64,000 nucleotides of DNA, taken from positions 19,155,648-19,219,647 of the forward strand of contig NC_092673.1 in NCBI RefSeq assembly GCF_964355755.1. The letters run 5' to 3'. The translations under genes were made by a program, and so were the position numbers. Below the pieces are notes generated by a model that was not told the origin of the DNA, did no database searches, and saw only the letters and a list, made by a program, of their open reading frames with translations. Below are positions 907 to 50,414 of this stretch, in pieces. Each line of letters starts with the position of its first letter. Position 1 is the first letter of the stretch. The stretch is from Antedon mediterranea. Its lineage: Eukaryota > Animalia > Echinodermata.

Positions 907-2672
907 CTTGTTCTGATCGATGCTTTCGTTTAATTTTCTTTGGGGATTTTTTATCACCTAAATGTGGATAAATTTGTAATACATTCAATGATACAAACAG
1001 GCCTATGTTTAAAGTAATTATTAATTAATAATTATAAAATCTCTTTTGCAAAAAATACATGTTAAAACAGATATGATAACAGTGTTCTTAAGGCCAATTT
1101 ACACAGACAAGCGGTAACGGTACAGTAAGTGGAAAACCATGTAGCTTGTCCATATAGAATCTGTATCTATCCTGAGTGGAAACCGCCCGTCCGTGTTGTG
1201 TGTAAATGGTCATAAAGAGTATCATAGATTCTATATTTTTTATTACCGTTACCGCTTGTCTGTGTAAATCGGCCTTAAAGCTGATAAAACTATTTATGTG
1301 TCCATAGATTTCCTTTGGGTATTTGTTGAGTTGTGATACAACAATATTGTTTAAATAATTGTGAGCAGTTCATTTTTTTTCATTATTGCCTACAGAACAT
1401 AGTGTTTATGAAATATAATAACATAATTTTTTGGTGATTGAGTAAAGGGTGCCTGAAATTCCTGATTTTAATTTCAAATATCAAAAATGTTTAAAAACGT
1501 AAAATTAACTTTTATATACAGTATTGCTTTTAAAAATAAATTTTAAAATTTGTATCGAATATAATTGAATAAATTAGAATTGTTGTACTGTACTGAAGTA
1601 AATAATTTTTGTTTAAAATAATTTGAGATTCTAATACTGAATAGTTCATAACAGTTTGTGTGTATTGATATATTACTATCTACATCATTACCAAAATAAA
1701 CATAACATACCTGGATTTGAACTTGCTGTCTCACCTTTAACAAAAAAAAAACCAATATTTCAATAAATGCTAGACAAATTACAGATTCTTCCTGGTAACA
1801 CTATAGCTATACTAGTGCAAAAGGATCAATGCTTATTTAAAAACGACAACAACATGAACTTTCAATTGGGAACAGTTAGCATATATATACTTACAAAACA
1901 CTTTCACTGGAGGAATATCATTTGACTCTTGTGAGAGTAAAAAGTTTGCCTTTAGAAGATTTGTTGATGTATTATTTCTGAAAAAATTAAATGTCCTTGA
2001 TGGGCTTTCACTCCATAGGTATTCAGCAGTGATAATCTAAAAATAAGAATATTTTTAGAAAGAAAAAGTACATATTACAGCTCGAAAGCAGAAAAGTATA
2101 AATAGTATGTTACCTAAATTATTGCTATTTTATTGTACTTGGTAGTTTTAGTGGCAATCAATCTTTGATCATACACTCATGAACAAGGTATGGATTCGAA
2201 GATAAGCCGTACAATTTAGACCAGATAGCGAGTTTGTCAAATGTTGCTTACAGAACAGTAGACACTTTGGCAATTGTGGGAAAGAAACAAAGAAAGACCG
2301 TTTTGTTTGTAAAGCAGAATCAAATCAGTCGTAGCTGACTGGATAACTACTGTAGGAGATCAATTGGATATAGCGGGAGATATTTTTCATTTATCTTTTA
2401 AACTACAGTATTAGTTTTACTGCAAGCATCTGTTTAATACATATTCTTGAGCCTCAAAAGCTTATACAAATATTATGATATCACAAATTGTGAAAAAACG
2501 TTTTTAGATTTAATTTAATAAAACAGAATGGACATACTTCTTTTTCATCTTCTACTTGCCATTCTTGGTTTGGAATCGCAACACTGATTCTAATGTCTTT
2601 ATACAAAGAAAGAATATTGTCAGGTGGTTGTAAAAGTTGCTCACCACATTGTTCGTGCTCTTTTTGTATCTT
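907..2672 (-). CDS. Module 2 UPA-like exons (2538-2672, 1895-2036), 24-nt micro-exon (1711-1734) and basic exon (907-957, GDKKSPKKIKRKHRSEQ)
   Basis: The 135- and 142-nt exons have the same lengths and phases as in module 1; canonical borders. Confidence 0.75.
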
Positions 2673-5600
2673 CTGAAATACATAAAATATAAAATAAAAG
2701 CACAAAATGAACTAGGCACTTTATTTTACATTTACACAATTTAAGCACCGAATGTGCCCTTTCTACATAATCACATTGTTCGTGCTCTTTTTGTATCTTC
2801 TGAAATACATAAAATACAAAATAAAAGCACAAAATGAACTAGGCACTTTATTTTACATTTACACAATTTAAGCACCGAATGTTCCCTTTCTACATAATCA
2901 TAACTGAAGCACAAATGTCAGAATGGCAGTGCGATAACAAAATTTCTATGAAGTTATGATTACCATCCATCCATTTTGTCCAGGTAAACATGTCGGTATG
3001 ATGCATTATCAAATGTAGAAAATTGTGGAATGTTTATAATTTAAAAATCTATGAGATTGTTTTTTCTTTTTCAATTGAAGCATTATGCCATTTTAAATTA
3101 ACTTCACAAACTTTGATATTTACTTAAGTTAAAACTGTTATCTACCAATACATCATCTCCAAATATAAATAAAAATACATTATCAATCAGTTGATCTCAC
3201 TTAAAATATATTAAAAAAAAAAAAATTGTCAACTATACTAAAAATATAAAATTATAATCATTTAAATACAAAATAATCCAAAATTAATAATTACCCTTTG
3301 TTTTCCAGGGTTCCAAAGTCTTAATCGAAGTTGATAATTATTTTCAAGGCTCTTTCCAAACACTCCACACTTTAATCTTTTCTTAGCATGAATAAAATTT
3401 CTTACATGACCCTCAAGTGCAAAGAGAGAAAAATGATTTATATTGATACAACATCGACCATTGTTTAAAGTGAAATTAATGTCCTTTTCATCACTTTCTA
3501 ATGCTATTTTTCTCCATTTATCGTGAAAGTGATCTTTAACAAGTAAAGTAAATTCCCAATTCTCTTCATTTACAGCATTGTGTGGAAATGACAGTAAACA
3601 TTGCTTGTTGAAGATGGTGCCTTCTGGTCCACATTTAACAATAGGCGATATTATTGATTCATGAGGTTGAGATATAGGCATGTCTATTTTCTTCAAAACA
3701 TTTTCTAGTGATATGTTAAATTTCTTTCCTTCTTCGATTGCTCCAGGTTGTATCTCCAACTTTATGTCTTCATCTTTAAGATGGAGAGTTTTGCCTTTAG
3801 AGCTCACAATTAACTTCATTTGATCTGCAGAATGAAAATGACATTACTTTTAAGATTTATTGTCCCCAAAAATATAAAAAATGAAGATTAATAAAATCAT
3901 ACTTTGAATATAGGCTAGGCAATCTAGCATTTTGAGTGAAACTAATTGCAATTAAAAAAATGACAGCCTTTAACCTCGACCCCATTTCTCAATGTTTGCA
4001 TAAACAATGTAACTAAAATGTCCCTAGAGACTATGTTTTGCTATCAATGACTCAGATACAGGTTTCCAATAGCCAGCATAGGACAACTTTGTAATTCCTA
4101 AAATCATACCTTTGTCACACACCTCAAAAGTATGCAAAATAGTAGTACAATTGTTAGTACAGAGGTGTGATGCTCAAATTTTGATCTCTTCATCATATGT
4201 GGTCATTTAAAAAAGAAAAATCTTTGTTTGCAATTTGTTTCACTTTGGGCTGTTTTTTTAGCTAGATTCCCTAGCCTAATAGGTCATTATGCAGTTTTAA
4301 TAATGTTATTCACACCCGTAGAAAAAAAAAACCAACACAAATAATAATTGATGATAATATAATACAAAAATATTTTTTTAGGGGACAATACACCTGTAAT
4401 ATTTGTTATAATAGCAATTGCTATAATCCTGTTCATAACAAAAATGTTCAATAGCTAGGCATACTATCATACTTTCACTGATCTCTAGTTTAAAAAGAAC
4501 ACATCTTCATTTTGATACTTTTCACTAAAAATGTCTATTTTTAACAGGCATTTCTTTAAACATGGCACATCTTCACAAATAATGTTGTGAATTAATTGTT
4601 CAGCACAAAATCTATATCATCAAGTTTTATCTTTTCCATCTATTTCAATACAGTGTATGTTTTCAAACTTTTACAGATCTAACTTACTTTATTTCCTTTT
4701 GCAAACACAGAGTAAATACAGTATAGCATACCTGGATTTGAACTTGATGTCTCAAAATCACCTGCAACAAATAAAATATACAATATTTCAACATATTCTA
4801 AGAAACTACAAATTATATATGGTAGGATACATGCTACGCCAAAGCAAGATAACATTTTGATTGCTATTGTAAAGGCAACAATGTACTTTTTTTTATTTTA
4901 TGAATAACAAATAATATTATTATATATTATAAATGTGATATAAATGCTACTTAAATTGTTTGCTGCAGGTTAAACACTTACAAGACACGGTAACTGGAGG
5001 AATATCATATGGCCCTTGTGAGAGTAAAAAGTTTGCTATTAGAAGATTTGTTGATGAATCATTTCTAGTAAAAATAAATGTTTTTGATGGGCTTTTACAC
5101 CATATGTTTTCAGCAAAGATGATCTAAAAAAAAAAGAATAGATATATGTTACAGGTACTGCACTTCTTGGAACAGAACATTTCCAAATAATGTATTTAAC
5201 AGGTATTTCTACATTGGGAAAATATTAATATTTATTACATTTACCTAAACACCATCTCTTTGATAGTAATGTGTAATCAATCAAAAGATTGCTCCAGATA
5301 TTACAATAGGGAAAGGGTTCTTTTACTTTTAGTGGTATGACATTTTAAATTGGATCAAGAAAATAACATCTACTGTAACATCTTAATTTAAGAGACATTA
5401 ACTCGTGAACATGGTAATGGTAATGTCAGCATATAAAAGTATCTAAGTGAGTAGTTAGTATTATCATTTTTACAGTTACAAACTGAACTCATCTAATAGC
5501 ACTATGAGATGAGAGTGCATACCTATACTAACAATTATTATAACTAGATGGTACACTCGCTTAGGTCGTGCCCACAGATGGTTCTCGAATACACAGTAAT

Positions 5601-8600
5601 TTTTTTTTAAATGTACGTACCGCAGGAGTGGACTATAATAGTTATTGTTGTTTACAGAAACGAATAAATAGACACGATAATTTATGTATAGTAACTAAAA
5701 TCAGCACACTGGGAATTACTCCCGAAAGAGAAACTTGTCACAAAATGTACTATGCTATTTCAATCGACTATGACAGTGACCGTTTTAACAAAGTATTAAA
5801 TCGCAAATGTGTTAACTGTACCAAGTGGTATATTATTTATAGGCCTATAAAACATGAAAACGAAACGTGTGTAACATTAGAGTTGAGGGATGGGGAAGAG
5901 GATATGGGCACAAAGAACGAAATATTTTTTCTGACAACTGTCAGTAATAAAGTATATTTGTATATTGTGCGTTTATATATCTAACAGTAGGGCCTACTCA
6001 CACTCACAGTAATACGTTTATTTATACATGTGTTTATATATCTAACGGTACCCACACTAATAGTAAAAAAATTGCGATTCAAATGGCAACCAAAAATGGT
6101 TAATACGTATTTACAGTTTGTTTGTTTGTTTCATTTATTTATTTTCCACACATTTGAACAAAAGGAACAGAAATATGAACTATAAAAAAAGAAAAAAGAA
6201 GACAATGTGTGAAAGGAGATCAAAATACGGTAAGTAAAAATTACTTTAAGCATTGACCACCTGAACAGTTGTCGACATGACAAGAAAACTAATAAATCTA
6301 AAAATGTAATGTCCAAGTATTGCAATACTACAGTATATCTATATAGGTTTTAGGTTAATTCTCTAAGGGCCAATAAATTTATCTACAGCTGGTTATTAAA
6401 TCTATCAAAATAGTATTTTTTAAAGAAAATCGGCCCGTCTTCAACATTATGATGTGTACTCGAGCTGTACAACCAGTTTTCAGCTATTAAAAACAATTAT
6501 CGTAGGAGATAGGAAATGCGAAGCATCCTCGTATTATTGTGTGCTGGTATTTTTCAAGAAAGACATCGATTAGACAGTGTATACCACGATCTGAAAACAC
6601 CACTATTTGTGGGCAAATCGTTGAACCTAAATTCGTTTTAATTGTCAATAACTAATTATCTAACTCAATTTAATTAGTTACATCAGGTTTTTAAAATCAG
6701 TACCAGAAGTACGAACCAACTTTAAATACCATCGAGTAAACATTCTAGAAGTAACACACGATTTACCGAACTTTGCCCTTACGTAAATTTATATAGATTA
6801 TAATGTATAGATTTTCCCCCCCAGAAATTTGATAATAGAATTTTGATTGTTTAATCTTTTCCCATCTACTCTAAACATGTGAAATTGTGATTGGATGAGA
6901 TTATTATCCCTTATTAATTATTATTATTAATAATTATATTTTTGCTGAAATACGTTTTTCTGGTTTTAATTCTCTTATAAATTTTCTCTTCTTTACCATT
7001 ACACATTTATTTTCTCTCCTCCTATTTAAAAAAAAACTACAATGAAATACTACGGTTCATTTTACAGAGCAATTATCAGAAGAACGCAACTGAATGGGTA
7101 GAAAAACCTGAAATAGTGGGGAAGGGGAAAAATGGTATCAACTGCATGCAAACATCTGTTTACTGAATTATTGATTTGTTAATGATTACACATTTTTTTT
7201 TAAACAAAATAAATGATCATACTTCTTTTTCATTCTCTACTTGCCATTCCTGGTTTGGTATCTCAACACTAATTTCCATTGAGTTATACAAGCACAGTAT
7301 ATTTTCAGGTGGTTGTAAAAGCTGCTCGCCAAATTGTAGCTGCTCTTTTTGTATCTTCTAAAATACAATGAAAAACAAACACAAGATGAACCAATCAAAT
7401 GTTATAATTTTTAAATCTAAAAATGTGATTGTTTTCCTTTTATACTTTTCAAAATGTTTTAACCAATTGAAGCCAAGATAAATTATCTTTACAGAGTTAA
7501 CATTGTTATCTACAAAAATAGGTTCTATAAAATACATTATCAACCAGTCAAAAAGTAACAGCAACTTATCTCCCTTTTCCTAGTTAAAAGAATTGTCAAT
7601 ATTTAATATACAAATGAATACTACATTTTGAAATTTAAAAAAAAATCAAAAAAAAAAAAAAAAATCATAATCTGATTCAAGTACATTTCTATAAACAAAT
7701 TACAAATTAATAATTACCCTTTCTTTTCCCGGGTTCCAAAGTCTTAATCGAAGTCGATAATTATTTTCAAGCCTTTTTCCAAATACTCCAAACTTTATTT
7801 TTTTCTTAGCATAACCAAAATTTGTGTTAATTTTACCCTTAAGCGCACAACAAGTGAATGAAATAAATTGTACAAAACATTGACCATTTCTTAAAGTATA
7901 TATCTGATTTTCATCACTTTCCAACAGTATTTGTTTCCATTTATCTTCAATGCGATCTTTAACAAGTAAAGTAAATTCCCAATTCTCTTCATTTACAGCA
8001 TTGTGTGGAAATGACAATAAACAGGGCTTGTTGAAGCTGGTGCCTTCTGGTCCACATTTTACAATAGGTGATATAATTGTTTCATGATGATGACGATATA
8101 CAGGCATTTCTATTTCAATGTTTTCAAGTGATATGTTAACTGACTTCCCTTCTTCAATTGCTCCAGAATATATCTGCAACTTGATGTCCTCCTCCTTAAG
8201 ATGAAGAGTTCCCCCTGTAGAGTCCACAATTAACTCTATTCGATCTGCAGAATGAAACATTACTTTAATTGTGTTTGTTGCAATTGTTATAATCTCCTTC
8301 ATTATACAATTATACTTTCTTCCATCACAAACTTACAATGTTAGCTCTCTTTAGAGTATAACTTCTTAACAAAAATAGTACCAAATCATTTTATTGTCAA
8401 GATTATATTAACAGTACAGTAAGTTAAATACAGCTTATATTGGAACATTAAAAGTACACTAGCAGAAAAATGTATATACAGCAATGTAAGATTGTCTATT
8501 TTCCTCAATTCATTTATTTCAACTTGAATTGCACAGTGTTAGTTCTATTTAATTTTATAACAAAAATAGTTTTTCATGTTTTTAATATTATTGGTTGTGG

Positions 8601-11600
8601 TATCAGTACCATGCCATCTGTTGTAATTAATACATGAACAGTAACTAAAATAATATGTAACCATTTAAAAAGATATTTACGCTATAATGAGTGTGTGGAT
8701 GGGACTCAAACCTCTCTAGACTACTGATCTCAGTGGTCTGGAGGTATATACGCAATGCTAGTAATCTGGAGGTCATGGGTTTGAGTCCAATCTGTGAAAT
8801 ACTTTTAAATTTGTTCGCAAAGTGTTCTCATTGAACTGAGTATACAGTGCAATTACGTCAGAATAAGACAAAACATCTGACCAACTAAATTATTCTCTTA
8901 ATCTTTCAACTCATTGAAAATGTTTTGTGCCAAATTTTGAACCATGAGTGAGAAACTTATAATCATAGCAGTACATCTAAGGACAATTTAAGCTATTGAA
9001 GTTGCACGCAATTATAAGAATTTGTATATTATATAATATATGATAAAATAAACGAATGAAATTCTTACTACAAGTCCACTACTGAAATACCATTTTAAAC
9101 ACAATATGTTACATTGAACCATACAACTCCTTATACGATTCTTAAACTCACCAATCACTGGTTTAAGCTTTGTTTTCTGTTCTTCAACCATTAGTTTCTC
9201 AAAGTGTTCACTAGCAAGACTTGGTAAATCTAAAAAATGTAACATACAAAATCTTTTACACATATTTTTCATAAAAAGAAATATTAAAAGACACAACTTG
9301 GCAAAAATTGTTAATGTTCATAATGCTACCATATAATAATAATTTCTCTATTTTTATACTGGTGTAGGTTACAAAGGCTGGTGAGGCTATGTCTGAATAT
9401 AGCCCGAGTGTCATTATCATATCTTGATCATCATCATGATATCATATTTTTATATATAACCTTTATCTACAATAATAGGCATTGTTACCCTCACTTATCA
9501 TCTAATCAATGAGATTTTATCTATGATTTTTATATAATATATATATATGTCTATTTTAAAAACAAGATATATATGAAATTTGTCTAATTTATATTTACCG
9601 TACTGACGCGGGTATAAGCCCACCCCCCTCAAACATGAAATCACGTCAAGTTTGGGGGGTGGGCTTATACCCGAGGATCCAAAAATGCAGATCGTCAAAA
9701 ACAGCACATGTACACTGTGTATTCCACCATGCGAGCGAACGCCCTCACGTGTACGACGTTGCCTCTAAACACGAGGTGTAGAGTGCCAGAAAATTAAGCT
9801 TATAGTTCGTGTAATTTATCGTAGAATATCTTATTTTAAACATCAATTGAACAAGAATTTATCAAGCAGAAAAGCAAGTATACAATGTTCGTTAAATAGA
9901 AATGTACCAAAGAAATTTAATAAGCTTGTTTATGGCAGCCGATACCAAATAGTGGTTTTCCGTTTTGGCGACTTGTAGCGTATCGTGTGTGAAGCGATCT
10001 TCGACCGCGATGGAGTGTTAACAAAACAGGACCGCTAGGCCTCATATGGCCTAGCGTGCGTATATTAGCCTAGCTTGGTTATGATCAAAAAGGTAGGTGT
10101 ATTCGGTGTATGGACGTCGCCAAATACAAAATAATGTATTACGACACACACTGTAGATCTTCGAATTAATGGGTGGGCTTATACCCGAGTGCCTCATTTT
10201 TCATGAAAATTAGTCAAAAGTCGGGGGTGGGCTTATACCCGAGTATGGGCTTATACCCACGTCAGTATATTTTAACATGGCACCTGTTCACACAATGATG
10301 TAAATTTATATTTTTATTTGTTTCAGCAAAATGTGGAGTGCTGAGGAGGGCCAAAGCAGAGAAAACACTACCACCAGGGAATAAAATTGTTCACTGTCTA
10401 CATTTAACTATGCTATGCTATATTTATTGTTGAAATCATTGTTTTCAGATAGATTTGTGAAACATTTTAATAACTTTCTATATCTATAATCAGCTTTAGA
10501 AATTCAACTACAGTACAACAAAACTACACACTTTATGTTTGTCTTAATAATCAGCATTATATTCTTTGTGTTAAAATATGATACTAATTATTAATGTTAG
10601 AGTAATATCATTCTCATTAACACCAACTTCTTTGTCATTATCATCTTGTTGATATCTTTATTTTAATTTTTATAATTCTTTGTTGTTGTTTGTTGTTTTG
10701 TCTTGTTGAGGGCCCATAATGGTAAATCCGTTTTTAAGAATATTCAAATAAAGAAAGGAGAAAGGACCCAAATGACACATTGATACATTTATAGAGACAA
10801 ATACAATAAAAGTAGTTTCTCCGTTGGTTAAGAGTTGGAAACTTGATAGTATTCCTGTTAATACGTTGTTAAAGATATGATTTTTGTTTTTTTTTTATTG
10901 GTAATCCGCACAGATTGAAAAAAAATGGATCGAATTTCTGTTATGGCTGTACTTGTCTTTACGACGCCTGAGGGAATAGAAACTTGTGGAACAGAGATTG
11001 GAATGTTCCATTTATCGCAGATCAATACATTTGTATAAACGTATATTAAATCTATCAAAATAGTATTTTTTAAAGAAACACTTCAACATTATGATGCTGT
11101 ACTCGAGCTGTTCAACCGGTTTTCAGCTATTAAAAACAATTATTGAGGAGGAGATAGGAAAATGCGAAGCATCCTCGTATTATTGTGTGTGGGTATTTAT
11201 TAAGATTGACATCTATTATACAGTGTATACCACAACCACGAAACACCCCTATTTGGGGCAAATCGTTGAACCTGAATTTGTTTTAATTGTCAATAACTAA
11301 TTATTTAACTCAATTTAATTAGTAAACAGGGTTACATCAGATGGTTAAAATGAGTACCGAAAGTACAAACCAACTTTATATACCATCGAGTATAAATTCT
11401 GGAAATAAACCGCGATTTATCGAATTTTGCCCTTACGTAAATTTATATATAGGTATAGGATCTTGCTAACGCGAATACAATAGCCGGTATCACAATCCGA
11501 TCAAAGATCCCTCTGCATATAATGTCATTAACCACATTGTTACATAATAATAAAGACATTACTTACTTTTTATCTAGATTTCATTTTAAATTATGTGTAT

Positions 11601-14600
11601 AATCTATACACTAAAAAATAAAATTGAACAAACAATATGGATAATAAAAAAAATCTTATTTCGTTTCCCAATGTGAGACTCGATCTCGGTACCTTGAATG
11701 CCATAGACACGAGCACAGACCACCGAGCCATACACAACTGACTAAAAGTTGTAGAAAGATTCCTCCGTGTATTTACTATGCAGCAACCACTTTGGCGCAG
11801 ATAGATTATTACATACCGCAATGAATTATAATTTTTTACTATGATGACATCTTTAAAAATGTTAAAAAATGATGCACTGTCAAACTATATACTTTTAACT
11901 TTAATATATGAACTTTTATTTTGAAAGAAGAAAGTTAAAGTTTGTTATTTCGGCCTAAGAAAATGTCATAATTTTTTGATTGTCGAAATAAATTTTTTTA
12001 AATTTAAAATGCAATTAATGACAACTTTTGTACTCTTAATTTCATAATAAATCATACATGATACATACACTTCAAGAAAATGAAATAAAAAATACGTGTT
12101 CCCGAGATTTCTGACGATCTATATTATTTTTAAAATTTAGCATATTTTCACCATTTTGTTAACTTACACGTGCGTAGCCTGTCACTCTTGACGTGCTCGT
12201 ATAACGCAAATTCGAGTTGAAAAGTGAATAAAATATGATGATATTATTAAAGAAAGGTTGTACGTGCGTGATCGCATGATAATGCATATAACCTAAAAAT
12301 CAACAATCAAGCAAAAATCAAGCAAGCATGCCACATAAATCTGCAAACTATAGCTTCATTCCATTATTACAGTATTTTAAATAGAAACAATCAACTGTTT
12401 GTTTTATTTATGATAATCTCTCCATTTGTTATTTGTTATCAGTTGCACACTTTTCGCCTTTTTACAGTACCGCTCAGAAATGTTTTTTTAATAACATTAG
12501 CGTCTAATTCTCTCTTTACTGAAATCCCATTTTAATCACAATTCTGTTAAATTATAATATAGATACAATCATAAAACATACAGCAGCTCTTATTCTTAAA
12601 CTCACCACTCTCTGGCTTAAGAAGTTTTGTTTTCTGTTTGTCACTTGTATGTTTCTGAAATTGTGTTTGAAATTGCTCATCAACAGTACTTGTTAAATCT
12701 AAAAAAATGCACAAAACAAAAATATGACATATTATATATTTTCATAAAAAACACTATATTAAAAGTCATAGCTTTTTTGTTTCAATGGTATAAGGTTATA
12801 TAAAGGCTCTGTGTGATACAAAGCCTTACAAACACTTGTGGGTGATTGTGTACAAGCAATCATTCATTCTGAATATACTATAATAATAATAATGTATATT
12901 TTTAACTACAATGTATACAGTTAACAACTACAGTTATTAATTATGTCCTAAAAAATGTGTGGAACTCAAACTCATCCAAACATATAGGCGTTATGCAACA
13001 TTTTTTGACAGAGATCCTGAATCTAAATCGTTTCTAGCAACATACGGTTGATTAGGATGGTTTCACTGTCTGTGTAAAGTGAAAATAAAGTAATCCTAAA
13101 ATGAATAACTGGTATGTTATTGACCACCTATCGTAAGTTTTTAATATGCCTTGAACTTTTTAAATGTTTTTATTTATATTCTGTTTTATGACCAGTAACC
13201 AATTTTGTTTTTATATCTGTGTGAAAACACAATAAAGATAACTTGAACTTGAGCCCACCATGGTTTGGGCTGAATTTTGCCAATATAGACCTGGAATTGC
13301 ATTTTTAAAGGCCTACAATAAGGGCACTGTTCTTTATACACTTGGTAGAGCTTGGTTATGCTTTGTGGGACTTGGTGTTTAGAATAACACATGTATGATG
13401 CTTAATTTTACATACAGAAAAATAGTATTCTTAAGCTGGCTTAAAAATGTGTGAAGAAAATTCATTCATTGTGGAAACAAAAAATGGGATTAACAAGAAA
13501 ATGTTTTATTTTTATATTCAATATTTATCGCCTCCTATCGTAAATTGTTTGCCTCGAATGCGAATGTGGGAAGGAGGAGTTTGAATTTGTCTATTGGTTT
13601 TACCCATAGTAAAAAAATTAGTAGATTTAAGTAGACTTAAGTAGAAATAGCTCTATTTTTAGTAGTTTTTTAGTAGACCTTTTTATCTCGCCTAATAAGG
13701 ATTTTAACTCAATGAGTCAACGATGGAACGACTACTTCCCAGCTATAAAATAGATAGTTGATTAATATTTAACTGGCTATTATCAGTTTCTTTATAGTCT
13801 ATTGATAGGTCATTGGTAGTCTTGTATAGCTATAATAAGGAGACAGTAGATAGATAGATATGATACTCATAGATTTCTAATAGCTATCTGGTAGTCCATA
13901 TCTATCTATTGTATAAAATAGATAGCTTATTAACAGTTACTGGCTATTATCAGTTTGTTTATGTCTATTAATAGGTTGCTGGTAGCCCATTGTATAGCTA
14001 TTATAAGTAGACAATAGATAGATGCATACAACTGTGTTACTCACAGATTGAAAATAGTGAAAAATCTATCTAACACTATTAGTGGGGGTTTTGAATTATG
14101 CTAATGAGGTAAAACCTATTAGGAACTATCTAAAATCTACCTAAATCTACTTATTAGTAGGTGTTTAATAGGTAATAGAGCTATATCTATTAAGGGGATA
14201 ACTTTTAAGGCGAATAGATATAGAGATATATCTACTAAGAACTTTTAATTAAGCGCCATCATTTACGGCAGTAACCTGGTACGCACGGCGCGCTGAAAAT
14301 CCGGTGATTCAGCTCCTCGAAGAAGACAAATTATTATTTAAAATGTTTGAAGGAAATTCATCCATTGTGGAAACAAAAACTGGGATTTAACAAGAAAATT
14401 AGATTTTTATATTCAATATTTATCTCCTCCTATCGTAAATTGTTTGCCTTGAATGCGAATACCAATTGTACATAGCATTATATATAAAATACATTACATT
14501 AAAAAAAAAATAATCTACATTTTACATTTATGTGCAATTAATAAAGTTCAAATATTCCTTAACAATGCATATCCCCCGTCCGATTATTGTAACTAGTTTA

Positions 14601-17600: not shown

Positions 17601-20600
17601 ATTTAGTTATTTTTTTATTTGGTTTGTTTTAATAAAATTTGATTTTTGTTAATGTGCTTACTTTTTTCTCTCATTAAATGGTTTACGTCAGCAGATCTAT
17701 ATGATGTTAGCCTATTACACTAGCAAATCCCTGTACATTACCTTATTTTGCAATGCTACTGGTGCCCCATGCTGAATGAGACACGTCACTATTTCTAAGG
17801 TAGGCACAGTATATCCACTCCACAGATATGAATGTAATGGAGTGTTACCATCCTGGAAAGGAATCATAATCATGAATGTTTATAAATACTGACAACAGAC
17901 ATTATGTGAAATTGTTTTTTTTGTGTAAATACAAACAACAACAATTACTGCTAAATAATGTGATAAAATCCTAATTATCATTATTGATAAATGAAAACAA
18001 AATAGAATATATTACCATGGATCAGATCTAGTAATTGTTAGCCTATTACTTAATGTAAGTAATCATTAAAATCTACTTACTGTACAATATCAATCACAAA
18101 ATGTAAACATTAATAAAATACATATTTCATAAAATTGTACAAACAAATGTTTAGATGTTAACAATATGAGACCAATAAGCAGTTTAATGAATTTACATAT
18201 AAATTTAGGTAATGGGAAATTTCAGTAAATTAAGTGCAACTTCTAGAATTTATACTCAATGGTAGAGAAAGTTTGTACATACTTCCGGTACTGATTTTTA
18301 ACACCTAATGAAAATCAGTGTACTATAAATGTACATAAATACAAAAAAACCAACACAAATACAAAAAAAATGCACAAAATTGCCCAAGAATACATGGTTT
18401 GATCGTCAATGCATAAAAAAGAAAATTATTATTCGTAGCATTCTTAATAAATATAGAAAATACAAAACTAACACCCTATTAAATGAATATCTGTTAAAGA
18501 AAAGGAGTTATAAAAAATTAATAAAATTAAAAAAAAATAAACATAAAAATTCATCACAACAAAAATTAATCAGGTTAATAAAGGAACATAACAGTACAAA
18601 ATTTTGGAAAAACCTTAAAACCAAACGACAACAAAACGTAACAAACATTACACTTAAAAAATGGCATGATTACTTCAAAACTATGTTCCAAAATCAAACA
18701 AATAATATACAAGAAATCAATATAGAAGACGATAACGATAACAATTGCGAACATAACGATTGTTACAATGAAGAAATCAGCCGGGAAGAGGTAATTTATG
18801 CAATTAAAGCACAGAAAAGGAGTAAAGCTCCAGGTATTGATGGATTCCCAATTGATTTTTTTACTTGTATCCCAAATGCTGCTATTAGCGCAATTACGAA
18901 CATTTTTAATAGTATTTTTACCTCTGGAAATTTTCCCCAACAATGGGCAACAAGCATTATTATTCCTATATTTCAAAAGCGTAAAAGAGATCAACCAGCA
19001 AATTATAGAGGCGTATCCTTAATATCCACTTTAGGCAAGGTGTTTTTAAACATTATAAGCAATAGATTAAGCAAATGGACAGAAGAAAATGAAATATTAC
19101 ATCAAGAACAGGGAAGGTTTAGAAAAGATTGTCGTACTATTGATAAAATATTTATTTTAGACACAATTGTTAACAAATATCTCTCAAAAAAACGAGGAAC
19201 TGTGTACATGGCGTTTATAGATTTAAAACGCGCTTTCGATTCTATTAGACACGATTTCCTTATAAGTAAACTAAGAAAATCTGGTATAAAAGGTAAAATA
19301 ATCAAAGTTATAAAAACAATGTATAGTAAACTAAAAGGGCATGTAAAGGTTGGCAACAAAATTGGAGAATCCTTTAAATGTGAAGTAGGAATACAACAAG
19401 GGTCACCTTTATCTTCATTATTATTTAATATTTTTATTAATGATATAACTGATTTATTACATACTGCTGAAAATCGAAACAAAATAAAAATTAATAACAT
19501 AAATATTAATCACCTACTGTATGCAGATGATCTAGTTTTAATCAGTGATACAGTGTACTCATTACAAGATCTTTTAAATAAATTAGCATATAACTATTGT
19601 AATAATAGGTGGGGATTGGTAGTTAACATTGACAAAAGTAAAATAATAGTATTTTAAAAAAATGGAAAACTTAAGAACTACGAAAAGTGGAATTAACTTG
19701 GTAAAGAAATTGAAATAGTAAAATCTCTTAAATATCTTGGAGTCACTTTCGATTGTTCAGGAATTTGGGAAAAGGCCAGAGAACAAAATAATACACAGGC
19801 TAATAAAGCACTTTTCTCACTCAAAAATATAGTATATCAGAAATATGGACATTTACTAGTGAATATTTGGAACTACTTATTTGATGTTAAAATAAACCCA
19901 ATTATACTGTATGGTAGTGAAATATGGGGAAAACTAAACAACAACAAAATTGATGATATTCAAAATAATTTCTGTAGATATGTTTTAGGGGTCGGGAAAT
20001 CAGCCACAAATGTTTCAATTAGAGGAGAATGTAGACGATTCTCTTTATCAATCGAAGGTGTACTCAATGTTATCCGTTATTGGGTAAGACTAGTAAATAT
20101 GAACGAGGACAGATATGCGAAGAAATGTTATAAATCTCAACTTCATAAAGCGCAAAATAATAGTAATTGTTGGGTAAGCGATGTAAAACATATGTTATGC
20201 TCTATTGGTCATGGAAACATATGGTTTTCACAAAATAATGTCCTTGATAAATTTCATATAATTAATAAAAATAAAAGAAAGGCTAACCGATATGGAACGC
20301 CAATCCTTTCATGAAAGCATAAATATTTCTTCAAAATTAAGATATTATAAAATGTTCAAAAACAATTTCGGAGTAGATGGATACTTACTACAGACCCTTG
20401 ATACTAGATATAAGCGAGCTTTAAGTCAACTAAGACTGGGCACACTTCAACTAGAGGTAGAAAAGGGAATATGGAAAAGAATAGAGCGCAACAATAGGTT
20501 ATGTAAAATATGTGATATAAATGAAGTTGAAGGTGAATATCATTTTGTTACAGTTTGCTCTCGTTACAAGGAAATCAGAAAAAAATTTATACCTTCTTTA

Positions 20601-23600
20601 TTTTTTGAAAATCCAAATACTTTTAAATTCTGCCGTTTAATTTCATCACAGGATCCAATAATTATTGATAATCTATCTAAATATATTTATCATGCTTATA
20701 AGTTAAGATATATGTTTTGCTTAGAGAACGAAATTAATTAATTCATTTATCCTGCGACCATAAATTGCTTTATTTTTCAATGTAATTATTATTTTATTAA
20801 TTACTAGGGGCCAGAGGCCTAAAGTAAATAAAGTAAGGCGATAAGCCTGAATGAATGAATGAATGAATGAATGAATGAATGAATGAATGAATGAATATTG
20901 ACGATCAAAACAAATTTATCATTTGCCTCGATGAAGATCAAAAAATGTTTGCACAAAAAGATCCTAGGTTGGAAAAGGATCTCCAGATGTAGTTTAAGGC
21001 CATGTTTATAATTAGCTAGATAGACTGACAGAAGCATTTTTTTTGTAAGATAAGGGAAGGAGCACATTATTAATTAATAATCATTATTAATTAAAAATCA
21101 TTTTTTTATTAAAATCAGATTCTATTAATTTTTGTTTAGTAGTTGTCCCATTTTATTTCATATTTACAATTAATTAGACCATTATCAATAATTGTTAATT
21201 AATAGCTGAATATACAAAAAAAATAGATTTTATTGTTCATTAAGAAAATTAAAGATTTATGTTATATGATAGGTATAATATATATAAATATATAACTATT
21301 TAGTTATTTTTTTATTTTGTTTGTTTTAATAAAATTTGATTGTTGTTTATAATGTACTTACTTTTTTCTCTCATTAAATGGTCTACTTCAGCAGATCTAT
21401 ATAATGTTAGCTTATTACACTAGCAAATCCCTGTACATTTACCTTATTTTGCAATGCTACTGGTGCCCCATGCTGAATGAGACACGTCACTATTTCTAAG
21501 GTAGGTGTATATTCATTCCTCAGATAGTCATGTAATATAGTGTTACCATCCTAGAAAGGAATCATAATGAAGTTTATAAATACTGACAACAGACATTATG
21601 TGAAATTGGGTTTTTTTTTTGTAAATACAAACAACAATTACTGCTAAATAATGTGATAAAATATTAATTATCATTATTGATAAATGAAAACAAAATATAA
21701 TATATTACCATGGATCAGATCTAGTGATTGTTAGCCTATTACTTAATGTAAGTAATCATTAAAATCTGAGAAAGTTGGTAAATACTTTCAGTACTGATTT
21801 TTAACACACAATGAAACCAATATCATAATTAAGCTAAGTTAGATATTAACGATAACAAATTTAGTTTAAACCATTTGCCTTAATGAAAATCATATCATGA
21901 AGTCTGATACCATCCCATAATAAAATGTACCAAGACAGGAATTTGGTGAACAATACCATGTAATAAACAAAATTAAGGTAATTCTCCGGATGACAATTAT
22001 ATTTGACTACATAAATTCCAACATATCTGTATTCATTTGCTTTGTGTACAGTGCGACTTAAGACAATTTCAGTTATTTACCAAGGTTCATGTATTCGAGA
22101 ACCATCTGTGGGCACTTACTAGTATATCACATTTTAACTGGCAACTTTATAGAATCATTTTTTCCAAAAAGTCATAAGATAAGATACGGCACTGTTTGAA
22201 AAGAATAATTTCATGTTAAATTTCTTTTTCCAATTGCATTGCTCAAACATTTTTAGATTTTGGAAACCACTATAAACTAAACATTATTTACATTTCTATT
22301 CCATTTGTGGCAAAATGTTTGCAAAAAAAAATGCTGGAAAAGGATCTCTTTAAGGCCATATTCAAACTGTAATTAGCTGGATATACTGACAGAAGTATTT
22401 TTTGTAAGGTAAGGGAAGGAGCAGGTTATTAACACTAACTAATTCTTTTTTATTAAAATCAGATTCTATTAATTTTGTTAACAATAACACAAACATTTTT
22501 GTTTGCTATTTAATTATTTGTCAACATACATTTTATTTCATATTTATAATTAATTAGACCATTTTCAATTGTTATTTACTTTACAGCTACATATTGAGCA
22601 ATATATATTTATTTTATGGTAAAAAGTATTTAAACAAAATTATACTGATTCACCTGAATATAAAAAATTACAAGTAGATTGTTTTTGTTCATTAAGAAAA
22701 AAATAAATGTTATTTGATGGATAACTGTATACTTTAAATCAGTTATCATAAATCATATATAACTGTTTAGTTATTACAGTATTTTAATTTGATTTTTTGA
22801 TTTTTGTTAATGTGCTTACTTTTTTCTCTCATTGAATGGTTTACTTCAGCAGATCTATATAATGTTAGCTTATTACACTAGCAAATCCCTGTACATTACC
22901 TTATTTTGCCATGCTACTGGTGCCCCATGCTGAATGAGACAAGTCACTATTTCTAAGGTAGGAGCAGTATCTCTATGAGTATATCCACCCCACAGATACA
23001 TATGTAATGGAGTGTTACCATCCTGGAAAGGAATCATAATCATGAAGTTTATAAATACTGACAACAGACATTATGTGAAATTGTTTGTTTTTTGTCAATA
23101 CAAACAACAACAATTGCTGCTAAATATTGTGGTAAATAATCATAATTATCATTATTAATAAATGAGTAGAACAAAATAGAATGGTTTACCACAGCATATC
23201 TATAGAATGTTAGCCTATTACACTAGCAAATCCCTGTACATTTACCTTATTTTGCAATGCTACTGGTGCCCCATGCTGAATGAGACAAGTCACTATTTCT
23301 AAGGTAGGTACAGTATATCCACTCCTCAGATATGAATGTAATGGAGTGTTACCATACTGGAAAGGAATCACAATGAAGTTTATAAATACTGACAACAGAC
23401 ATTATGTGAAATTGTTTGTTTTTTGCTGCTGTAAATAACAACAATTGCTGCTAAATAATGTGATAAAATCCTAATTATCATTATTAATAAATGAAAACAA
23501 AATATAATATATTACCATGGATCAGATCTAGTAATCGTTAGCCTATTACTTAATGTAAGTAATCATTAAAATCTACTTACTGTACAATATCAATCACAAA

Positions 23601-26600
23601 ATGTAAACATTAATAAAATACATATTTCATAAAATTGTACAAACAAATGTTTAGATGTTAACAATATGAGACCAATAAGCAGTTTAATGAATTTACATAT
23701 AAATTTAGGTAATGGGAAATTTCAGTAAATTAGGTGCAACTTCTAGAATTTATACTCAATGGTAGAGAAAGTTTGTACATACTTCCGGTACTGATTTTTA
23801 ACACCTAATGAAAATCAGTGTACTATAAATGTACATAAATACAAAAAAACAAACACAAATACAAAAAAATTGCACAAAATTGCCCAAGAATACATGGTTT
23901 GATCGTCAATGCATAACAACAACAAATTATTATTCGTAGCATTCTTAATAAATATAGAAAATACAAAACTAACACCCTATTAAATGAATATCTGTTAAAG
24001 AAAAGGAGTTATAAAAAATTAATAAAATTTAAAAAAAAATAAACATAAAAATTCATCACAACAAAAATTAATCAGGTTAATAAAGGAACATAACAGTACA
24101 AAATTTTGGAAAAACCTTAAATCCAAACGACAACAAAATGTGACAAACATTACACTTAAAAAATGGCATGATTACTTCAAAACAATGTTCCAAAATCAAA
24201 CAAATAATATACAAGAAATCAATATAGAAGACGATAACGATAACAATTGCGAACATAACGATTGTTACAATGAAGAAATCAGCCGGGAAGAGGTAATTTA
24301 TGCAATTAAAGTTAACATTGACAAAAGTAAAATAATAGTATTTTTAAAAAATGGAAAACTTAAGAACTACGAAAAGTGGAATTAACTTGGTAAAGAAATT
24401 GAAATAGTAAAATCTCTTAATTATCTTGGAGTCACTTTCGATTGTTCAGGAATTTGGGAAAAGGCCAGAGAACAAAATAATACACAGGCTAATAAAGCAC
24501 TTTTCTCACTCAAAAATATAGTATATCAGAAATATGGACATTTACTAGTGAATATTTGGAACTACTTATTTGATGTTAAAATAAACCCAATTATACTGTA
24601 TGGTAGTGAAATATTGGGAAAACTAAACAACAACAAAATTGATGATATTCAAAATAATTTCTGTAGATATGTTTTAGGGGTCGGGAAATCAGCCACAAAT
24701 GTTTCAATTAGAGGCGAATGTAGACGATTCTCTTTATCAATCGAAGGTGTACTCAATGTTATCCGTTATTGGGTAAGACTAGTAAATATGAACGAGGACA
24801 GATATGTGAAGAAATGTTATAAATCTCAACTTCATAAAGCGCAAAATAATAGTAATTGTTGGGTAAGCGATGTAAAACATATGTTATGCTCTATTGGTCA
24901 TGGAAACATATGGTTTTCACAAAATAATGTCCTTGATAAATTTCATATAATTAATGAAATAAAAGAAAGGCTAACCGATATGGAACGCCAATCCTTTCAT
25001 GAAAGCATAAATATTTCTTCAAAATTAAGATATTATAAAATGTTCAAAAACAATTTCGGAGTAGATGGATACTTACTACAGACCCTTGATACTAGATATA
25101 AGCGAGCTTTAAGTCAACTAAGACTGGGCACACTTCAACTAGAGGTAGAAAAGGGAATATGGAAAAGAATAGAGCGCAACAATAGGTTATGTAAAATATG
25201 TGATATAAATGAAGTTGAAGGTGAATATCATTTTGTTACAGTTTGCTCTCGTTACAAGGAAATCAGAAAAAAATTTATACCTTCTTTATTTTTTGAAAAT
25301 CCAAATACTTTTAAATTCTGCCGTTTAATTTCATCACAGGATCCAATAATTATTGATAATCTATCTAAATATATTTATCATGCTTATAAGTTAAGATATA
25401 TGTTTTGCTTAGAGAACGAAATTAATTAATTCATTTATCTTGTGACCATAAATTGCTTTATTTTTCAATGTAATTATTATTTTATTAATTACTAGGGGCC
25501 AGAGGCCTAAAGTAAATAAAGTCAGGCGATAAGCCTGAATGAATAAATGAATGAATGAATGAATATTGACGATCAAAACAAATTTATCATTTGCCTTGAT
25601 GAAGATCAAAAAATGTTTGCACAAAAAGATCCTAGGTTGGAAAAGGATCTCCAGATGTAGTTTAAGGCGATGTTTATAATTAGCTAGATAGACTGACAGA
25701 AGAATTTTTTTTGTAAGATAAAGGAAGGAGCACATTATTAATTAATAATCATTATTAATTAATAATCATTTTTTATTAAAATCAGATTCTATTAATTTTT
25801 GTTTAGTAGTTGTCCCATTTTATTTCATATTTACAATTAATTAGACCATTATCAATAATTGTTAATTAATAACTGAATATATAAAAAAAATAGATTTTAT
25901 TGTTCATTAAGAAAATTAAAGATTTATGTTATATGATAGGTAACTGTACACTTTAAATCAGATCATAAATCATATATAACTATTTAGTTATTTTTTTATT
26001 TGGTTTGTTTTAATAAAATTTGATTTTTGTTAATGTGCTTACTTTTTTCTCTCATTAAATGGTCTATTTCAGCAGATCTATATAATGTTAGCTTATTACA
26101 CTAGCAAATCCCTGTACATTTACCTTATTTTGCAATGCTACTGGTGCCCCATGCTGAATGAGACACGTCAGTATTTCTAAGGTAGGTGTTGTATATTCAT
26201 TCCTCAGATATGAATGTAATAGAGTGTCACCATACTGGAAAGGAATCATAATGAAGTTTATAAATACTGACAATAGAAATTATGTAAAATTGGTTTTCTG
26301 TTGTTAATACAAACAACAACAATTACTGCTAAATAATGTGATAAAATCCTAATTATCATTATTGATAAATGAAAACAAAATATAATATCTTACCATGGAT
26401 CAGATGTAGTGATTGTTAGCCTATTACTTAATGTAAGTAATCATTAAAATCTACTTACTGTACAATATCAATCACAAAATTTGAATATTAATAAAATACA
26501 TATTTTATAAAATTGTACAAACAAATGTTTAGATGTTAAACATAATGTATGAGGCCAATAAGCAGTTAAATGAATTTACATATAAATTTAGGTAATGGGA

Positions 26601-29600
26601 AATTTCAGTAAATTAAGTGCAACTTCTAGAATTTTTACTCAATGGTAGAGAAAGTTGGTACATCCTTTTAGTACTGATTTTTAACACCCAATGAAACCAA
26701 TGTCATAATTAAGCTAATTTAGATATTAACGATAACAAATTTAGTTTAAACAATATTGCCTCAATGAAAATCATATCATATCATGAAGACTAATATCATG
26801 CCATCATCAAATATACCAAGACAGGAATTTGGTGAACAATACCATGCAATAAACAAAATTAAGGTAATTCTCAGGATGACAATTATATTTGAATACATAA
26901 ATTCTAACATATCTGTATTCATTTGCTTTGTGTACAGTGCAATTTTCAGTTATTTACCAAAGTTCATGTATTCAAGAAGCATCTGTGAGCACTTACTAGT
27001 ATATTATATTTTAACGAGAATTAATTTTTTCAACAAAGTCATAAGATAAAAGACGGAACTTTTCTTAAAAGCATTCAGTTTGAAAAGAATAATTTCATAT
27101 TACCTTTCTTTTTTAAATTGCATTACTCAAACAATTTAGATTTTGAAAACTAACAAAACATTGTGTACATTTCTCTTCATTTTGTGGCAAATGTTTGCAC
27201 AAAAAGATCCTAGGTTGGAAAAGGATTTCTTTAAGGCCATGTTCATAATTAGCTGGATAGACTGACAGAAGCATTTTTTGTAAGGTAAGGGAGGGAGCAG
27301 GTTTTTAATTAATAATCATTTTTTATTAAAATCAGATTCTATTAATTTTTTTAACATAAACATTTTTAGTTGTTTACTAGTTGTCCCATTCTATTTCATA
27401 TTTACAATTAATTAGACCATTGTCAATAACTGTTAATTAATAACTGAATATATATAAAAAAATAGATTTTTTTGTTCATTAAGAAAATTAAAGATTGATG
27501 TTATGTGATAGGTAACTGTACACTTTAAATCAGTTATCATAAATCATATATAACTATTTGGTTTGTTTTAATCAAATTTGATTTTTGTTAATGTGCTTAC
27601 TTTTTTCTCTCATTAAATGGTTTACTTCAGCAGATCTATAGAAAGTTAGCTAATTACACTAGCAAATCCCTGTACATTTACCTTATTTTGCAATGCTAAT
27701 GGTGCCCCATGCTGAATGAGACACGTCACTATTTCTAAGGTAGGTGCAGTACTCCTCAAATATGAATGTAATGGAGTGTCACCATACTGGAAAGGAATCA
27801 TAATCATGAATGTTTATAAATACTGACAACAGACATTATGTGAAATTGGTTTTTTTTTTGTTAATATTGTACAAACAACAATTATTGCTAAATAATGTGA
27901 TAAAATTCTAATTATCATTATTGATAAATGAAAACAAAATATAATATATTACCATGGATCAGATGTAGTAATTGTTAGCCCATTACTTAATGTAAGTAAT
28001 CATTAAAATCTACTTACTGTACAATATCAATCACAAAATTTGAACATTAATAAAATACATATTTCATAAAATTGTACAAACAAATGTTTAGATGTTAACA
28101 ATATGAGACCAATAAGCAGTTAAATGAATTTATATATAAATTTAGGTAATGGGAAATTTCAGTAAATTAAGTGCAACTTCTAGAATTTATACTCAATGGT
28201 AGAGAAAGTTGGTACATACTTTCGGTACTGATTTTTAACACCCAATGAAACCAATATCATTTAAGTTAAGTTAGATATTAACGATAACAAATTTAGTTTA
28301 AACCATTTGCCTCAATGAAAATCATATCATATCATGAAGCCTGATACCATCCCATCATCAAATGTACCAAGACAGGAATTTGGTGAACAATACCATGTAA
28401 TAAACAAAATGAAGGTAATTCTCAGGATGACAATTATATTTGACTACATAAATTCCATCATATCTGTATTCATTTGCTTTTTGTACAGTGCAATTTTCAG
28501 TTATTTACCAAAGTTTATGTATTCAAAAAGCATCTGTGAGCACTTACTAGTATATTATATTTTAACAAGAAATAATTTTTCCAAAAAAGTCATAAGATAA
28601 AGAGACGGAACTTTTCTTAAAAGCATTCAGTTTGAAAAGAATAATTTCATATTACCTTTCTTTTTAAATTGCATTACTCAAACAATTTAGATTTTGAAAA
28701 CTAACAAAACATTGTGTACATTTCTCTTCATTTTGTGGCAAAATGTTTGCACAAAAAGATCCTAGGTTGGAAAAGGATCTCCAGATGTAGTTTAAGGCCA
28801 TGTTTATAATTAGCTGGATAGAATGACAGAAGCATTTTTTTAAGGTAAGGGAGGGAGCAGGTTATTAATTAATAATTATTTTTTATTAAAATCAGATTCT
28901 ATTAATTTTTTTAACATAAACATTTTTAGTTGTTTAGTAGTTGTCGCATTTTATTTCATATTTACAATTAATTAGACCATTGTCAATAATTGTTAATTAA
29001 TGACTGAATATATAAAAAAAAATAGATTTTTTTGTTCATTAAGAAAATTAAAGATTTATGTTATATGATAGGTAACTGTACACTTTAAATCAGTTATCAT
29101 AAATCATATATAACTATTTAGTTAATTTTTTATTTGGTTTGTTTTAATAAAATTTGATTTTTGTTAATGTGCTTACTTTTTTCTCTCATTAAATGGTTTA
29201 CTTCAGCAGATCTATAGAATGTTAGCCTATTACACTAGCAAATCCCTGTACATTTACCTTATTTTGCAATGCTACTGGTGCCCCATGCTGAATGAGACAC
29301 GTCACTATTTCTAAGGTAGGTGTATATCCACTCCACAGATATGAATGTAATGGAGTGTTACCATGCTGGAAGGGAATCATAATGAAGTTTATAAATACTG
29401 ACAACAGACATTATGTGAAATTGGGTTTTTTGACAATACAAACAACAACAATTAATGCTAAATAAAGTGGTAAATAATCATAATTAACATTATTAATAAA
29501 TGAGTAGAACAAAATAGAATGGTTTACCACAGCATATCTATAGAATGTTAGCCTATTACACTAGCAAATCCCTGTACATTACCATATTTTGCAATGCTAC

Positions 29601-37836: not shown

Positions 37837-37994
37837 TTCAAAAATACAGTGTGTTCATTTAACAATTATTAATACGGATAGCTTCTAGTGTAAAAGTAAG
37901 CCTACACATTCTGTTCTGAAAATATGAAAGGTAAAACATAATTTCATCAGACAGAAACCTTTGCATTAAAGGCTACGACAATTCAATTGCACCG

Positions 37995-38490
37995 GTATGC
38001 TGGCATTACTGAATGAAGATGACCTGTATGCTGGCATTACTGAATGAAGATGATCTGTATGCTGGCATTACTGAATGAAGATGATCTGTATGCTGGCATT
38101 ACTGAATGAAGATGATCTGTATGCTGGCATTACTGAATGAAGATGACCTGTATGCTGGCATTACTGAATGAAGATGACCTATATGCTGGCATTACTGAAT
38201 GAAGATGACCTGTATGCTGGTGTTACTGAATGAAGATGACCTGTATACTGGTGTTACTGCATGAAGATGACCTGTATGTTGGCGTTACTGAATGAAGATG
38301 ACCTGTATGCTGGTGTTACTGAATGAAGATGATCTGTATGCTGGTGTTACTGCATGTAGATGACCTGTATGCTGGTGTTACTGAATGAAGATGATCTGTA
38401 TGCTGGTGTTACTGCATGTAGATGACCTGTATGCTGGTGTTACTGAATGAAGATGACCTGTATGCTGGTGTTACTGAATAAGATGACTCC
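37995..38490. repeat. 31-bp minisatellite, about 16 copies
   Basis: Unit tgtatgctggcattactgaatgaagatgacc; ggcatt variants on the left, ggtgtt variants on the right. Confidence 0.95.
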
Positions 38491-46600: not shown

Positions 46601-47012
46601 CGATTTACATTTTGCGATTTGAAAATCGTTCTTGGTACCATTGTAAAGCTAAAATCTTTATGATTATTTTAGTCTAAATTACATGTAAATCAGATCACAT
46701 ACATAGTTTCAATCAGCTTTAATAAAAACATCGAATTGGGCTATAAACGCTGGCGGTGGCAGTTTCTAACTGGAAAAACCTCTGGCAGTCAAAGTGTTAA
46801 TAAATGGATCATAAAGTAAGGTAGTACAATACCCCACACAAATACCCTGACTAACAGCCCTGGAGAAGCAGTGCATTTTAGTCTATTAATAAATGGATCA
46901 TAAAGTAAGGTAATACAATACCCCACACAAATACCCTGACTAACAGCCCTGGGGAAGCAGTGCGTTTTAGTCTATTAATAAATGGATCATAAAGTAAGGT
47001 AGTACAATACCA
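43625..47012. repeat. 89-bp satellite, about 26 copies, interrupted by a transposon
   Basis: Unit accccacacaaataccctgactaacagccctggggaagcagtgcattttagtctattaataaatggatcataaagtaaggtagtacaat. Confidence 0.95.
45742..46796. mobile_element. piggyBac-like non-autonomous element
   Basis: TTAA duplicated; TIR cactttgactgcca / tggcagtcaaagtg; sub-terminal direct repeat at the left end. Confidence 0.85.
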
Positions 47013-50345: not shown

Positions 50346-50414
50346 TTGCCTATTTTGAAGGGAAAATAGTCCAGGACTACACTTCATTTAATTTGAGCAT
50401 AAAATAGCCTAAGC

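Follow-up and report, generated by a model that had tools for sequence, protein, structure and literature searches.

In a duplicated ZU5-UPA protein of the crinoid Antedon mediterranea, we judge it somewhat better than even that there is one likely self-cleavage event, between Phe429 and Ser430 of the second module, and that the equivalent site of the first module, which is without its histidine, is likely slow or dead. The gene lies on the minus strand of the window (the whole stretch of 64,000 nucleotides that was analysed) and corresponds to RefSeq XP_071947400.1 (hereafter P0001), a model of 776 aa to part of which the module 2 exon is 100% identical. Nine exons with AG/GT ends, running from 8244 to 907, join into one open frame without a stop that is identical to residues 21-591 of P0001, and two probable linker exons lie further upstream:

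12606 to 12698, minus strand: probable second upstream linker exon, in phase; common to paralog P0003, absent from P0001
9152 to 9229, minus strand: probable upstream linker exon, phase-compatible; common to paralog P0003, absent from P0001
7718 to 8244, minus strand: module 1 exon, whole ZU5 and first UPA strands; Pfam ZU5 match, joined by splicing to the following exon in run X8
7223 to 7357, minus strand: module 1 UPA exon a; spliced-frame match to P0001
4982 to 5123, minus strand: module 1 UPA exon b; spliced-frame match to P0001
4732 to 4761, minus strand: 30-nt linker exon from module 1 to module 2; P0001 match, junction absent from the RNA data seen
3295 to 3824, minus strand: module 2 exon, whole ZU5 and first UPA strands; Pfam ZU5 and P0001 matches
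2538 to 2672, minus strand: module 2 UPA exon a; P0001 match
1895 to 2036, minus strand: module 2 UPA exon b; P0001 match
1711 to 1734, minus strand: 24-nt linker exon after module 2; P0001 match
907 to 957, minus strand: basic linker exon; P0001 match, with the DED-like tail beyond the window edge

Each motif under study sits in an exon of 527-530 nt that holds a full ZU5 domain (Pfam ZU5 matches, E 1.6e-18 and 1.9e-20), and the same exon series (ZU5 exon, 135-nt exon, 142-nt exon, short linker) repeats in each module. Because this series repeats and the two copies share 82% of their DNA and 69% of their protein sequence over 265 codons, the ZU5-UPA unit has undergone a recent internal duplication, and the domain order of P0001 is ZU5-UPA-ZU5-UPA-DED-like. 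The presence of UPA after ZU5 is indicated by residues 20-290, which match UNC5/UNC5CL models with TM 0.84-0.87 (the aligned part being named UPA), and by a profile alignment that runs through the UPA of 3g5b; the Pfam UPA family itself had no match in P0001. The tail (approximately residues 610-776, the last ~170, encoded outside the window) is tandem-DED-like, with TM 0.79 to a caspase-10 model and 0.70 to a c-FLIP model, a profile match to the caspase-8 DEDs (E 0.001) and a Pfam DED match below cut-off (E 0.00037); by Pfam, profile and model comparisons of P0001 it is DED-like and not CARD. Pfam found neither LRR nor Death in P0001, and no membrane helix was seen in it. The upstream exons at 12606-12698 and 9152-9229 are related to each other, and the start of P0001 probably lies inside an intron. 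At 2645-2900 there is a 127-bp tandem duplication (98%) of a UPA-exon acceptor and exon start, the upstream copy of which leads to a stop if used.

Positions 3435-3427 of the minus strand encode His-Phe-Ser within ININ-HFS-LFAL (H428-F429-S430 of P0001), the predicted self-cleavage site of module 2, and positions 7861-7853 encode Ser-Phe-Thr within VQFI-SFT-CCAL (S148-F149-T150) in module 1. The initial annotation had taken HF|S and SF|T for the equivalent sites of two ZU5 modules, and both the codons and the shared alignment columns agree. The P1' nucleophile is kept in each (Ser430 and Thr150), and the P2 residue is His428 in module 2 and Ser148, without His, in module 1. AlphaFold2 models of the two exons, each built with 100 aligned sequences (pLDDT 91.7 and 93.7), place the scissile bond in a two-residue turn between strands in both cases; the cut site of CARD8 is described as a loop just ahead of a long strand (PMC3210808). 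When both models were aligned by VIA against 48,161 solved chains, module 1 matched NLRP1 (6x6c_E) with a modest Z of 7.8 (rmsd 3.1, 109 aligned) and module 2 with a Z of 7.7 (rmsd 3.1, 110 aligned), and the aligned range, which gives the last aligned residue only, ends in each with the motif Phe (model residues 129 and 131, respectively) on NLRP1 residue 1212. F1212 precedes the known cut of NLRP1, whose nucleophile is Ser1213. The same method returned Z 10.0 against CARD8 (7jkq) and Z 14.3-15.0 against UNC5B (3g5b), and its alignments to five GAIN chains also stop at the motif Phe. The best Foldseek match was likewise UNC5B (E 3.9e-09); VIA alone listed CARD8 and NLRP1, the ZU5 domains of CARD8, NLRP1 and PIDD1 being absent among the matches listed by Foldseek and by sequence searches of solved structures. 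The motif Phe aligns with residue 137 of 3g5b, which is Leu677 of UNC5B using an offset of 540 that fits the His624, Cys663, Glu666 and Cys670 named in PMC3210808, and Leu677 is equated with CARD8 Phe296 in the same source. Finally, an UNC5CL-like protein of 518 aa, aligned at 29% identity, has its own HFS (227-229) opposite that of module 2. Models and alignments thereby place the motif Phe at P1 on the known scissile bond in both modules, and the structural superposition proposed at the outset as a check leaves the HFS position unrefuted.

A profile search of 1.84 billion representatives returned 570 proteins at E<=0.001, and the best 150 of these 570, together with earlier matches, gave 155 proteins and 161 ZU5 domains, or 141 domains after removal of 15 fragmentary ones and 5 near-duplicates. 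Within this set His-Phe occupies the motif column in 103/141 homologous domains, and the position of the motif is therefore more than chance. The residue that follows is Thr in 68, Ser in 22 and Cys in 13, which accounts for 103/103; on a tree built without the motif columns, parsimony requires at least 21 changes at this residue, all among Ser, Thr and Cys and none to any other, and the eight neighbouring columns hold 6-16 residue types each. Ser, Thr and Cys are the nucleophiles of autoproteolysis by N-to-O/S acyl shift (PMC3210808), and a P1' position restricted to these three through at least 21 switches is therefore read as a nucleophile signature. Domains without the Phe carry S/T/C at P1' in only 7/22 cases, and most of these 22 form one clade that resembles the uncut UNC5 receptors (QLG, as in UNC5B). 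Further UNC5CL-like domains hold HFS or HFT in 18/18, and eight Antedon paralogs, compared as proteins only, hold HFC (four), HFS (three) and HFT (one). Ten homologs that were looked up include crinoids, a starfish, a hemichordate, a lancelet and bivalves, and most of the 54 homologs scanned are ZU5-(UPA)-Death proteins. The threonine of module 1 had initially been regarded as the doubtful change; as HF|T is the commonest form (68/103), Thr as an anomaly is ruled out, and the odd part of SF|T is the missing His. From the same family pattern, in which Thr is normal, the module 2 site is very likely live, and the release of a C-terminal UPA piece by self-cleavage, as first suggested, is likely for module 2 on the strength of its full motif and its scissile position.

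Counted by sequence offset, the histidines of module 1 lie at -133, -116, -79 to -77 (His71-73) and -50 only with respect to Thr150; there is none between -50 and Thr150, and so none at -27. Module 2, by the same count, has His at -34, -32 and -2 and none at -27. The catalytic His of NLRP1 and CARD8 is reported 27 residues before the nucleophile (H942/S969, H270/S297, H1186/S1213; 10.1101/2020.08.13.250241, PMC3210808), and it is because this upstream His is catalytic that these proteins tolerate Ser at P2. The initial annotation had likened SF|T to the SF|S of NLRP1/CARD8. Because module 1 is without the distal His this analogy fails, and SF|T was ruled out as an NLRP1-type site; the conserved Pro-His at -50 of module 1 corresponds to CARD8 His252, which is thought to be structural (PMC3210808). 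Proteins of the UNC5CL type have no His at the CARD8-type distal position, and as such the P2 His is their only obvious base. Published data from Nup98, CARD8 and GAIN domains differ on the need for a P2 His: changes at P2 are described as having little or no effect in Nup98 (H862A/Q) and CARD8 (S295A/Q) (PMC3210808), whereas in GAIN domains the His is the base, a receptor with Arg in its place needs the His restored to cleave, and ADGRB2 keeps HLS yet is uncut (10.1101/2023.03.12.532270). Two possibilities had been raised for the first site, namely that it is slow or dead or that it takes part in two-step processing as in PIDD; the former is favoured, the module 1 site being probably slow or dead as judged from its sequence, and the latter survives as a possible but weaker reading. 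Outside the receptor-like clade, twelve domains keep the Phe without the His, of which 10 keep Ser or Thr and 2 have lost the nucleophile. Against 0/103 among His-bearing domains, this 2/12 gives a Fisher p of 0.01 with relatedness ignored, which suggests that constraint is relaxed in the His-less set, though most of its members keep the nucleophile. Seven UNC5CL-like domains (P0069, P0075, P0089, P0091, P0127, P0147 and P0149) form a cluster without the His (TF|T, SF|T, SF|N), two of them labelled bivalve; six keep Thr, and they have no common replacement His. This cluster constitutes an independent test set for His-free cleavage.

The manner in which the His was lost may be legible in the codons that precede the Phe:

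7858 to 7870, minus strand: probable compensated +1/-1 frameshift; Q-F-I-S in frame against N-L-F-H one base out (7869-7858)

A His codon would need three substitutions to become the Ser codon of module 1, and the three codons before it are also unlike those of all paralogs. The closest relatives read N-L-N-H, N-L-I-H and N-I-N-H at these codons, and mismatches to module 2 fall from 8/12 in frame to 3/12 when shifted. The gain of 6 from shifting is the best in the 265 codons (the next-best place gives 3) and was reached in 12/3000 and 22/3000 null trials (p about 0.004-0.007), and the shifted 4-mer outscores the in-frame 4-mer against 12/12 crinoid-clade domains. The exact end of the shift is not fixable from module 2 alone, and the protein is back to the family pattern at Phe-Thr. 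These codon comparisons make it probable that a compensated +1/-1 frameshift, four codons long, cost module 1 its His. Pairs of neighbouring indels, the second of which brings the frame back after the intervening codons have been changed, are known and rare (Biba, Klink, Bazykin 2022, PMC8935012); the two near indels are common to the pairs described there and to the present case, which differs in that a likely catalytic residue was removed in one of two internal duplicates. Module 1 also evolves mildly faster, with more changes against 7/7 outgroups (chi2 1.3-4.3, the outgroups not being independent), and on either side of the site the two modules differ with a dN/dS of 0.6 (computed without one codon).

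Given the chemistry of PIDD1, UNC5CL, CARD8, NLRP1 and GAIN domains, it is reasonable to postulate that His428 would activate Ser430 while the buried Phe would strain the bond, and that an N-to-O acyl shift followed by hydrolysis would yield a UPA-DED-DED piece of 347 residues (40 kDa). By analogy with CARD8, whose fragments stay associated, this piece would remain bound to its own ZU5 until released, whereupon the UPA-DED-DED would recruit a DED partner, for example a caspase-8-like protein or FADD. After the duplication, module 1 would have gained one base and lost another some 13 bases away, which would have rewritten four codons, removing the His and leaving the Phe and Thr in place. Loss of the His there may have been tolerated if only the cut adjacent to the effector is needed, as for PIDD-CC; activation and signalling by PIDD1 are reported to need only the second cut (PMC7883297), and by analogy the first site would therefore be free to decay. 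Fragment sizes assume the RefSeq start, and two in-phase exons, and possibly eight ankyrin exons, lie upstream.

Of the alternatives, the one that fares best, although we consider it unlikely at roughly one chance in four, holds that both sites are cut in two steps in the manner of PIDD-C and PIDD-CC, with the strain at the Phe and the hydroxyl of the Thr sufficing without His; pieces of ~17, 32 and 40 kDa would then be expected from the 776-aa model. Module 1 keeps the Phe, the Thr and an intact fold, its Thr is the commonest nucleophile of the family, the frameshift ends just short of Phe-Thr, the nucleophile persists in 10/12 His-less domains, and the small effects of P2 changes in Nup98 and CARD8 (PMC3210808) would be in keeping with such a cut. 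However, the sequence near the site offers no substitute His, whereas CARD8 and NLRP1 need their distal His; the nucleophile is lost more often in His-less than in His-bearing domains; retention of the Thr may be inertia after a recent loss of the His; and the layout is unlike that of PIDD1 in that each ZU5 has its own UPA.

That neither site cuts, the motif being a structural remnant in an uncut UNC5-like scaffold or in a decaying duplicate of an immune gene, we regard as more doubtful still. A motif-bearing GAIN domain can stay uncut, a dN/dS of 0.6 is indicative of weak constraint, and the same fold works without being cut in the canonical UNC5 receptors (PMC10084454). Yet a chemical role explains the restriction to S/T/C in 103 domains better than a structural one does, and of the two modules the second changes more slowly. 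In addition, no stop interrupts the nine exons, and indel variants close to the motif come in lengths of three bases. Less probable again, and quite improbable in our estimation, is that each module has a transcript of its own, through tandem genes or alternative use, so that no one chain has a first and a second site. Single-module paralogs do exist, and among the 15 joints listed, out of 497, no RNA contig crosses the 4732-to-3824 junction; these 15 connect neither the modules nor the linker or ankyrin exons, and they are evidence in neither direction. Against separate transcripts, the RefSeq model agrees with all nine exons, which can be spliced in phase with no stop, and no DED exon was found between the two modules.

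The public runs bear on the remaining reading, that SF|T is an artefact of assembly. Contigs from X1 (possibly the source sample) and from X8 (another study) bridge SF|T without a gap, and X5 and X7 (under a different organism label) cover it and have no indel at 7853-7870; in these two the first of the shifted codons carries substitutions, and three-base indels occur further along. SF|T itself is the same in all four runs, which come from three studies. No listed run is recorded as RNA, and X8 behaved as RNA at one junction: one of its contigs departs from the genome exactly at donor 7718, and the 135 letters that follow are the beginning of the next exon, from which it follows that the module 1 exon is transcribed and spliced in X8, a result that rests on one study. 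One base gained and one lost within short A/T runs is the pattern that two homopolymer slips would leave, but an assembly error of this kind is contradicted by the four runs and by the splicing of the exon, and its likelihood is negligible.

The favoured reading, a single likely cut in module 2, may be set beside several known systems. UNC5CL self-cleaves (PMC7883297, PMC10084454). Antedon shares with it the ZU5-UPA fold, its Atlas model matching the UNC5CL cluster with TM 0.84, as well as the aligned HFS and a P2 His as the only obvious base; it differs from the ZU5-UPA-death domain arrangement of UNC5CL in the doubled module, the tandem-DED-like tail, the lack of a visible membrane helix in P0001 and the absence of His from module 1. 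PIDD1 is laid out as LRR-ZU5-ZU5-UPA-DD, whereas the Antedon protein is (ZU5-UPA)x2-DED-DED, with no LRR found, no adjacent ZU5 pair and no Death. The two have in common a pair of ZU5 domains with a cut motif after each, HF/S in PIDD1 (PMC3210808), and the distal cut of PIDD1 makes its signalling piece (PMC7883297). The FIIND of NLRP1 and CARD8 (ZU5-UPA-CARD) is alike in fold, in bond position, in having Ser at P2 as in module 1 and in the death-fold effector after UPA; it is unlike in its His at -27, absent here, and in an effector that is CARD where that of Antedon is DED-like. GAIN/GPS and Nup98 have a related sandwich (Z 5.7-9.7 for GAIN chains, 4.0-4.3 for Nup98) and the H-X-S/T chemistry with Thr as a working nucleophile, in different protein contexts and at 7-13% identity.

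Upstream of the modules, 17742-29693 of the minus strand holds a tandem duplication array of eight single-exon ankyrin-like repeats (phase 0, 105-123 nt), which differ mainly in mid-repeat; five were scanned, and 5/5 match Pfam Ank. The array is possibly the variable sensor part of this gene or of a neighbouring one. A possible further coding exon without a Pfam match lies upstream of it at 37486-37584 (minus strand), and on the plus strand within it lie a broken LINE-like element and a shortened copy (18329-20741 and 24026-25429; reverse-transcriptase match, E 2.6e-34). A MULE transposase-like frame (63213-63998, plus strand) runs off the window, and satellite arrays occupy 33170-37346, 37991-38487, 43626-47011, 47913-48487 and 49815-50346, with periods of 71, 31, 89, 85 and 18 bp. 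Four proteins from outside the window (P0007, P0016, P0018 and P0048) carry ZU5-UPA and DED-like units in shuffled layouts, P0007 being Roc-COR-DED-ZU5, and by their sequences point to a domain-shuffled crinoid immune family.

Self-cleavage of ZU5 is already known and the motif alone is ordinary. The ancient ZU5/GAIN/Nup98 domain is discussed in PMC10084454 with citation of Liao et al. 2014, where the S/T/C rule may already have been stated. Fusions of UPA-ZU5 and FIIND in expanded DED/TRADD-N families of marine invertebrates have been described with self-cleavage predicted (PMC8195603), an expansion in sponges has been noted (PMC3482391), and FIIND sequences in DED-containing proteins appear in a figure legend of PMC3210808. 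Among the listings of a literature search that covers few subscription journals, no paper dealt with this site or with a family of ZU5-UPA-tandem-DED proteins in crinoids. The ZU5-UPA proteins of marine invertebrates swap Thr, Ser and Cys freely behind His-Phe, and self-cleavage is therefore predicted, from sequence, as the rule in a large marine-invertebrate group. The two 69%-identical modules described here are matched by nature and could serve to ask whether a ZU5 that lacks a distal His depends on its P2 His, and module 1 is a probable example of a catalytic residue lost through two compensating frameshifts. Were the DED tail to be freed by the cut, FIIND-like logic would be extended to DED signalling in echinoderms. 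More speculatively, and with a probability that we hold to be low, crinoids may have expanded a self-cleaving ZU5-UPA-tandem-DED family of CARD8/NLRP1-like tripwires that signal through DEDs, in which the ankyrin-exon array would be the sensor, module 1 would be disarmed by the frameshift, and the module 2 cut would arm a UPA-DED-DED piece able to nucleate a caspase-8-like filament once the N-terminal part is destroyed.
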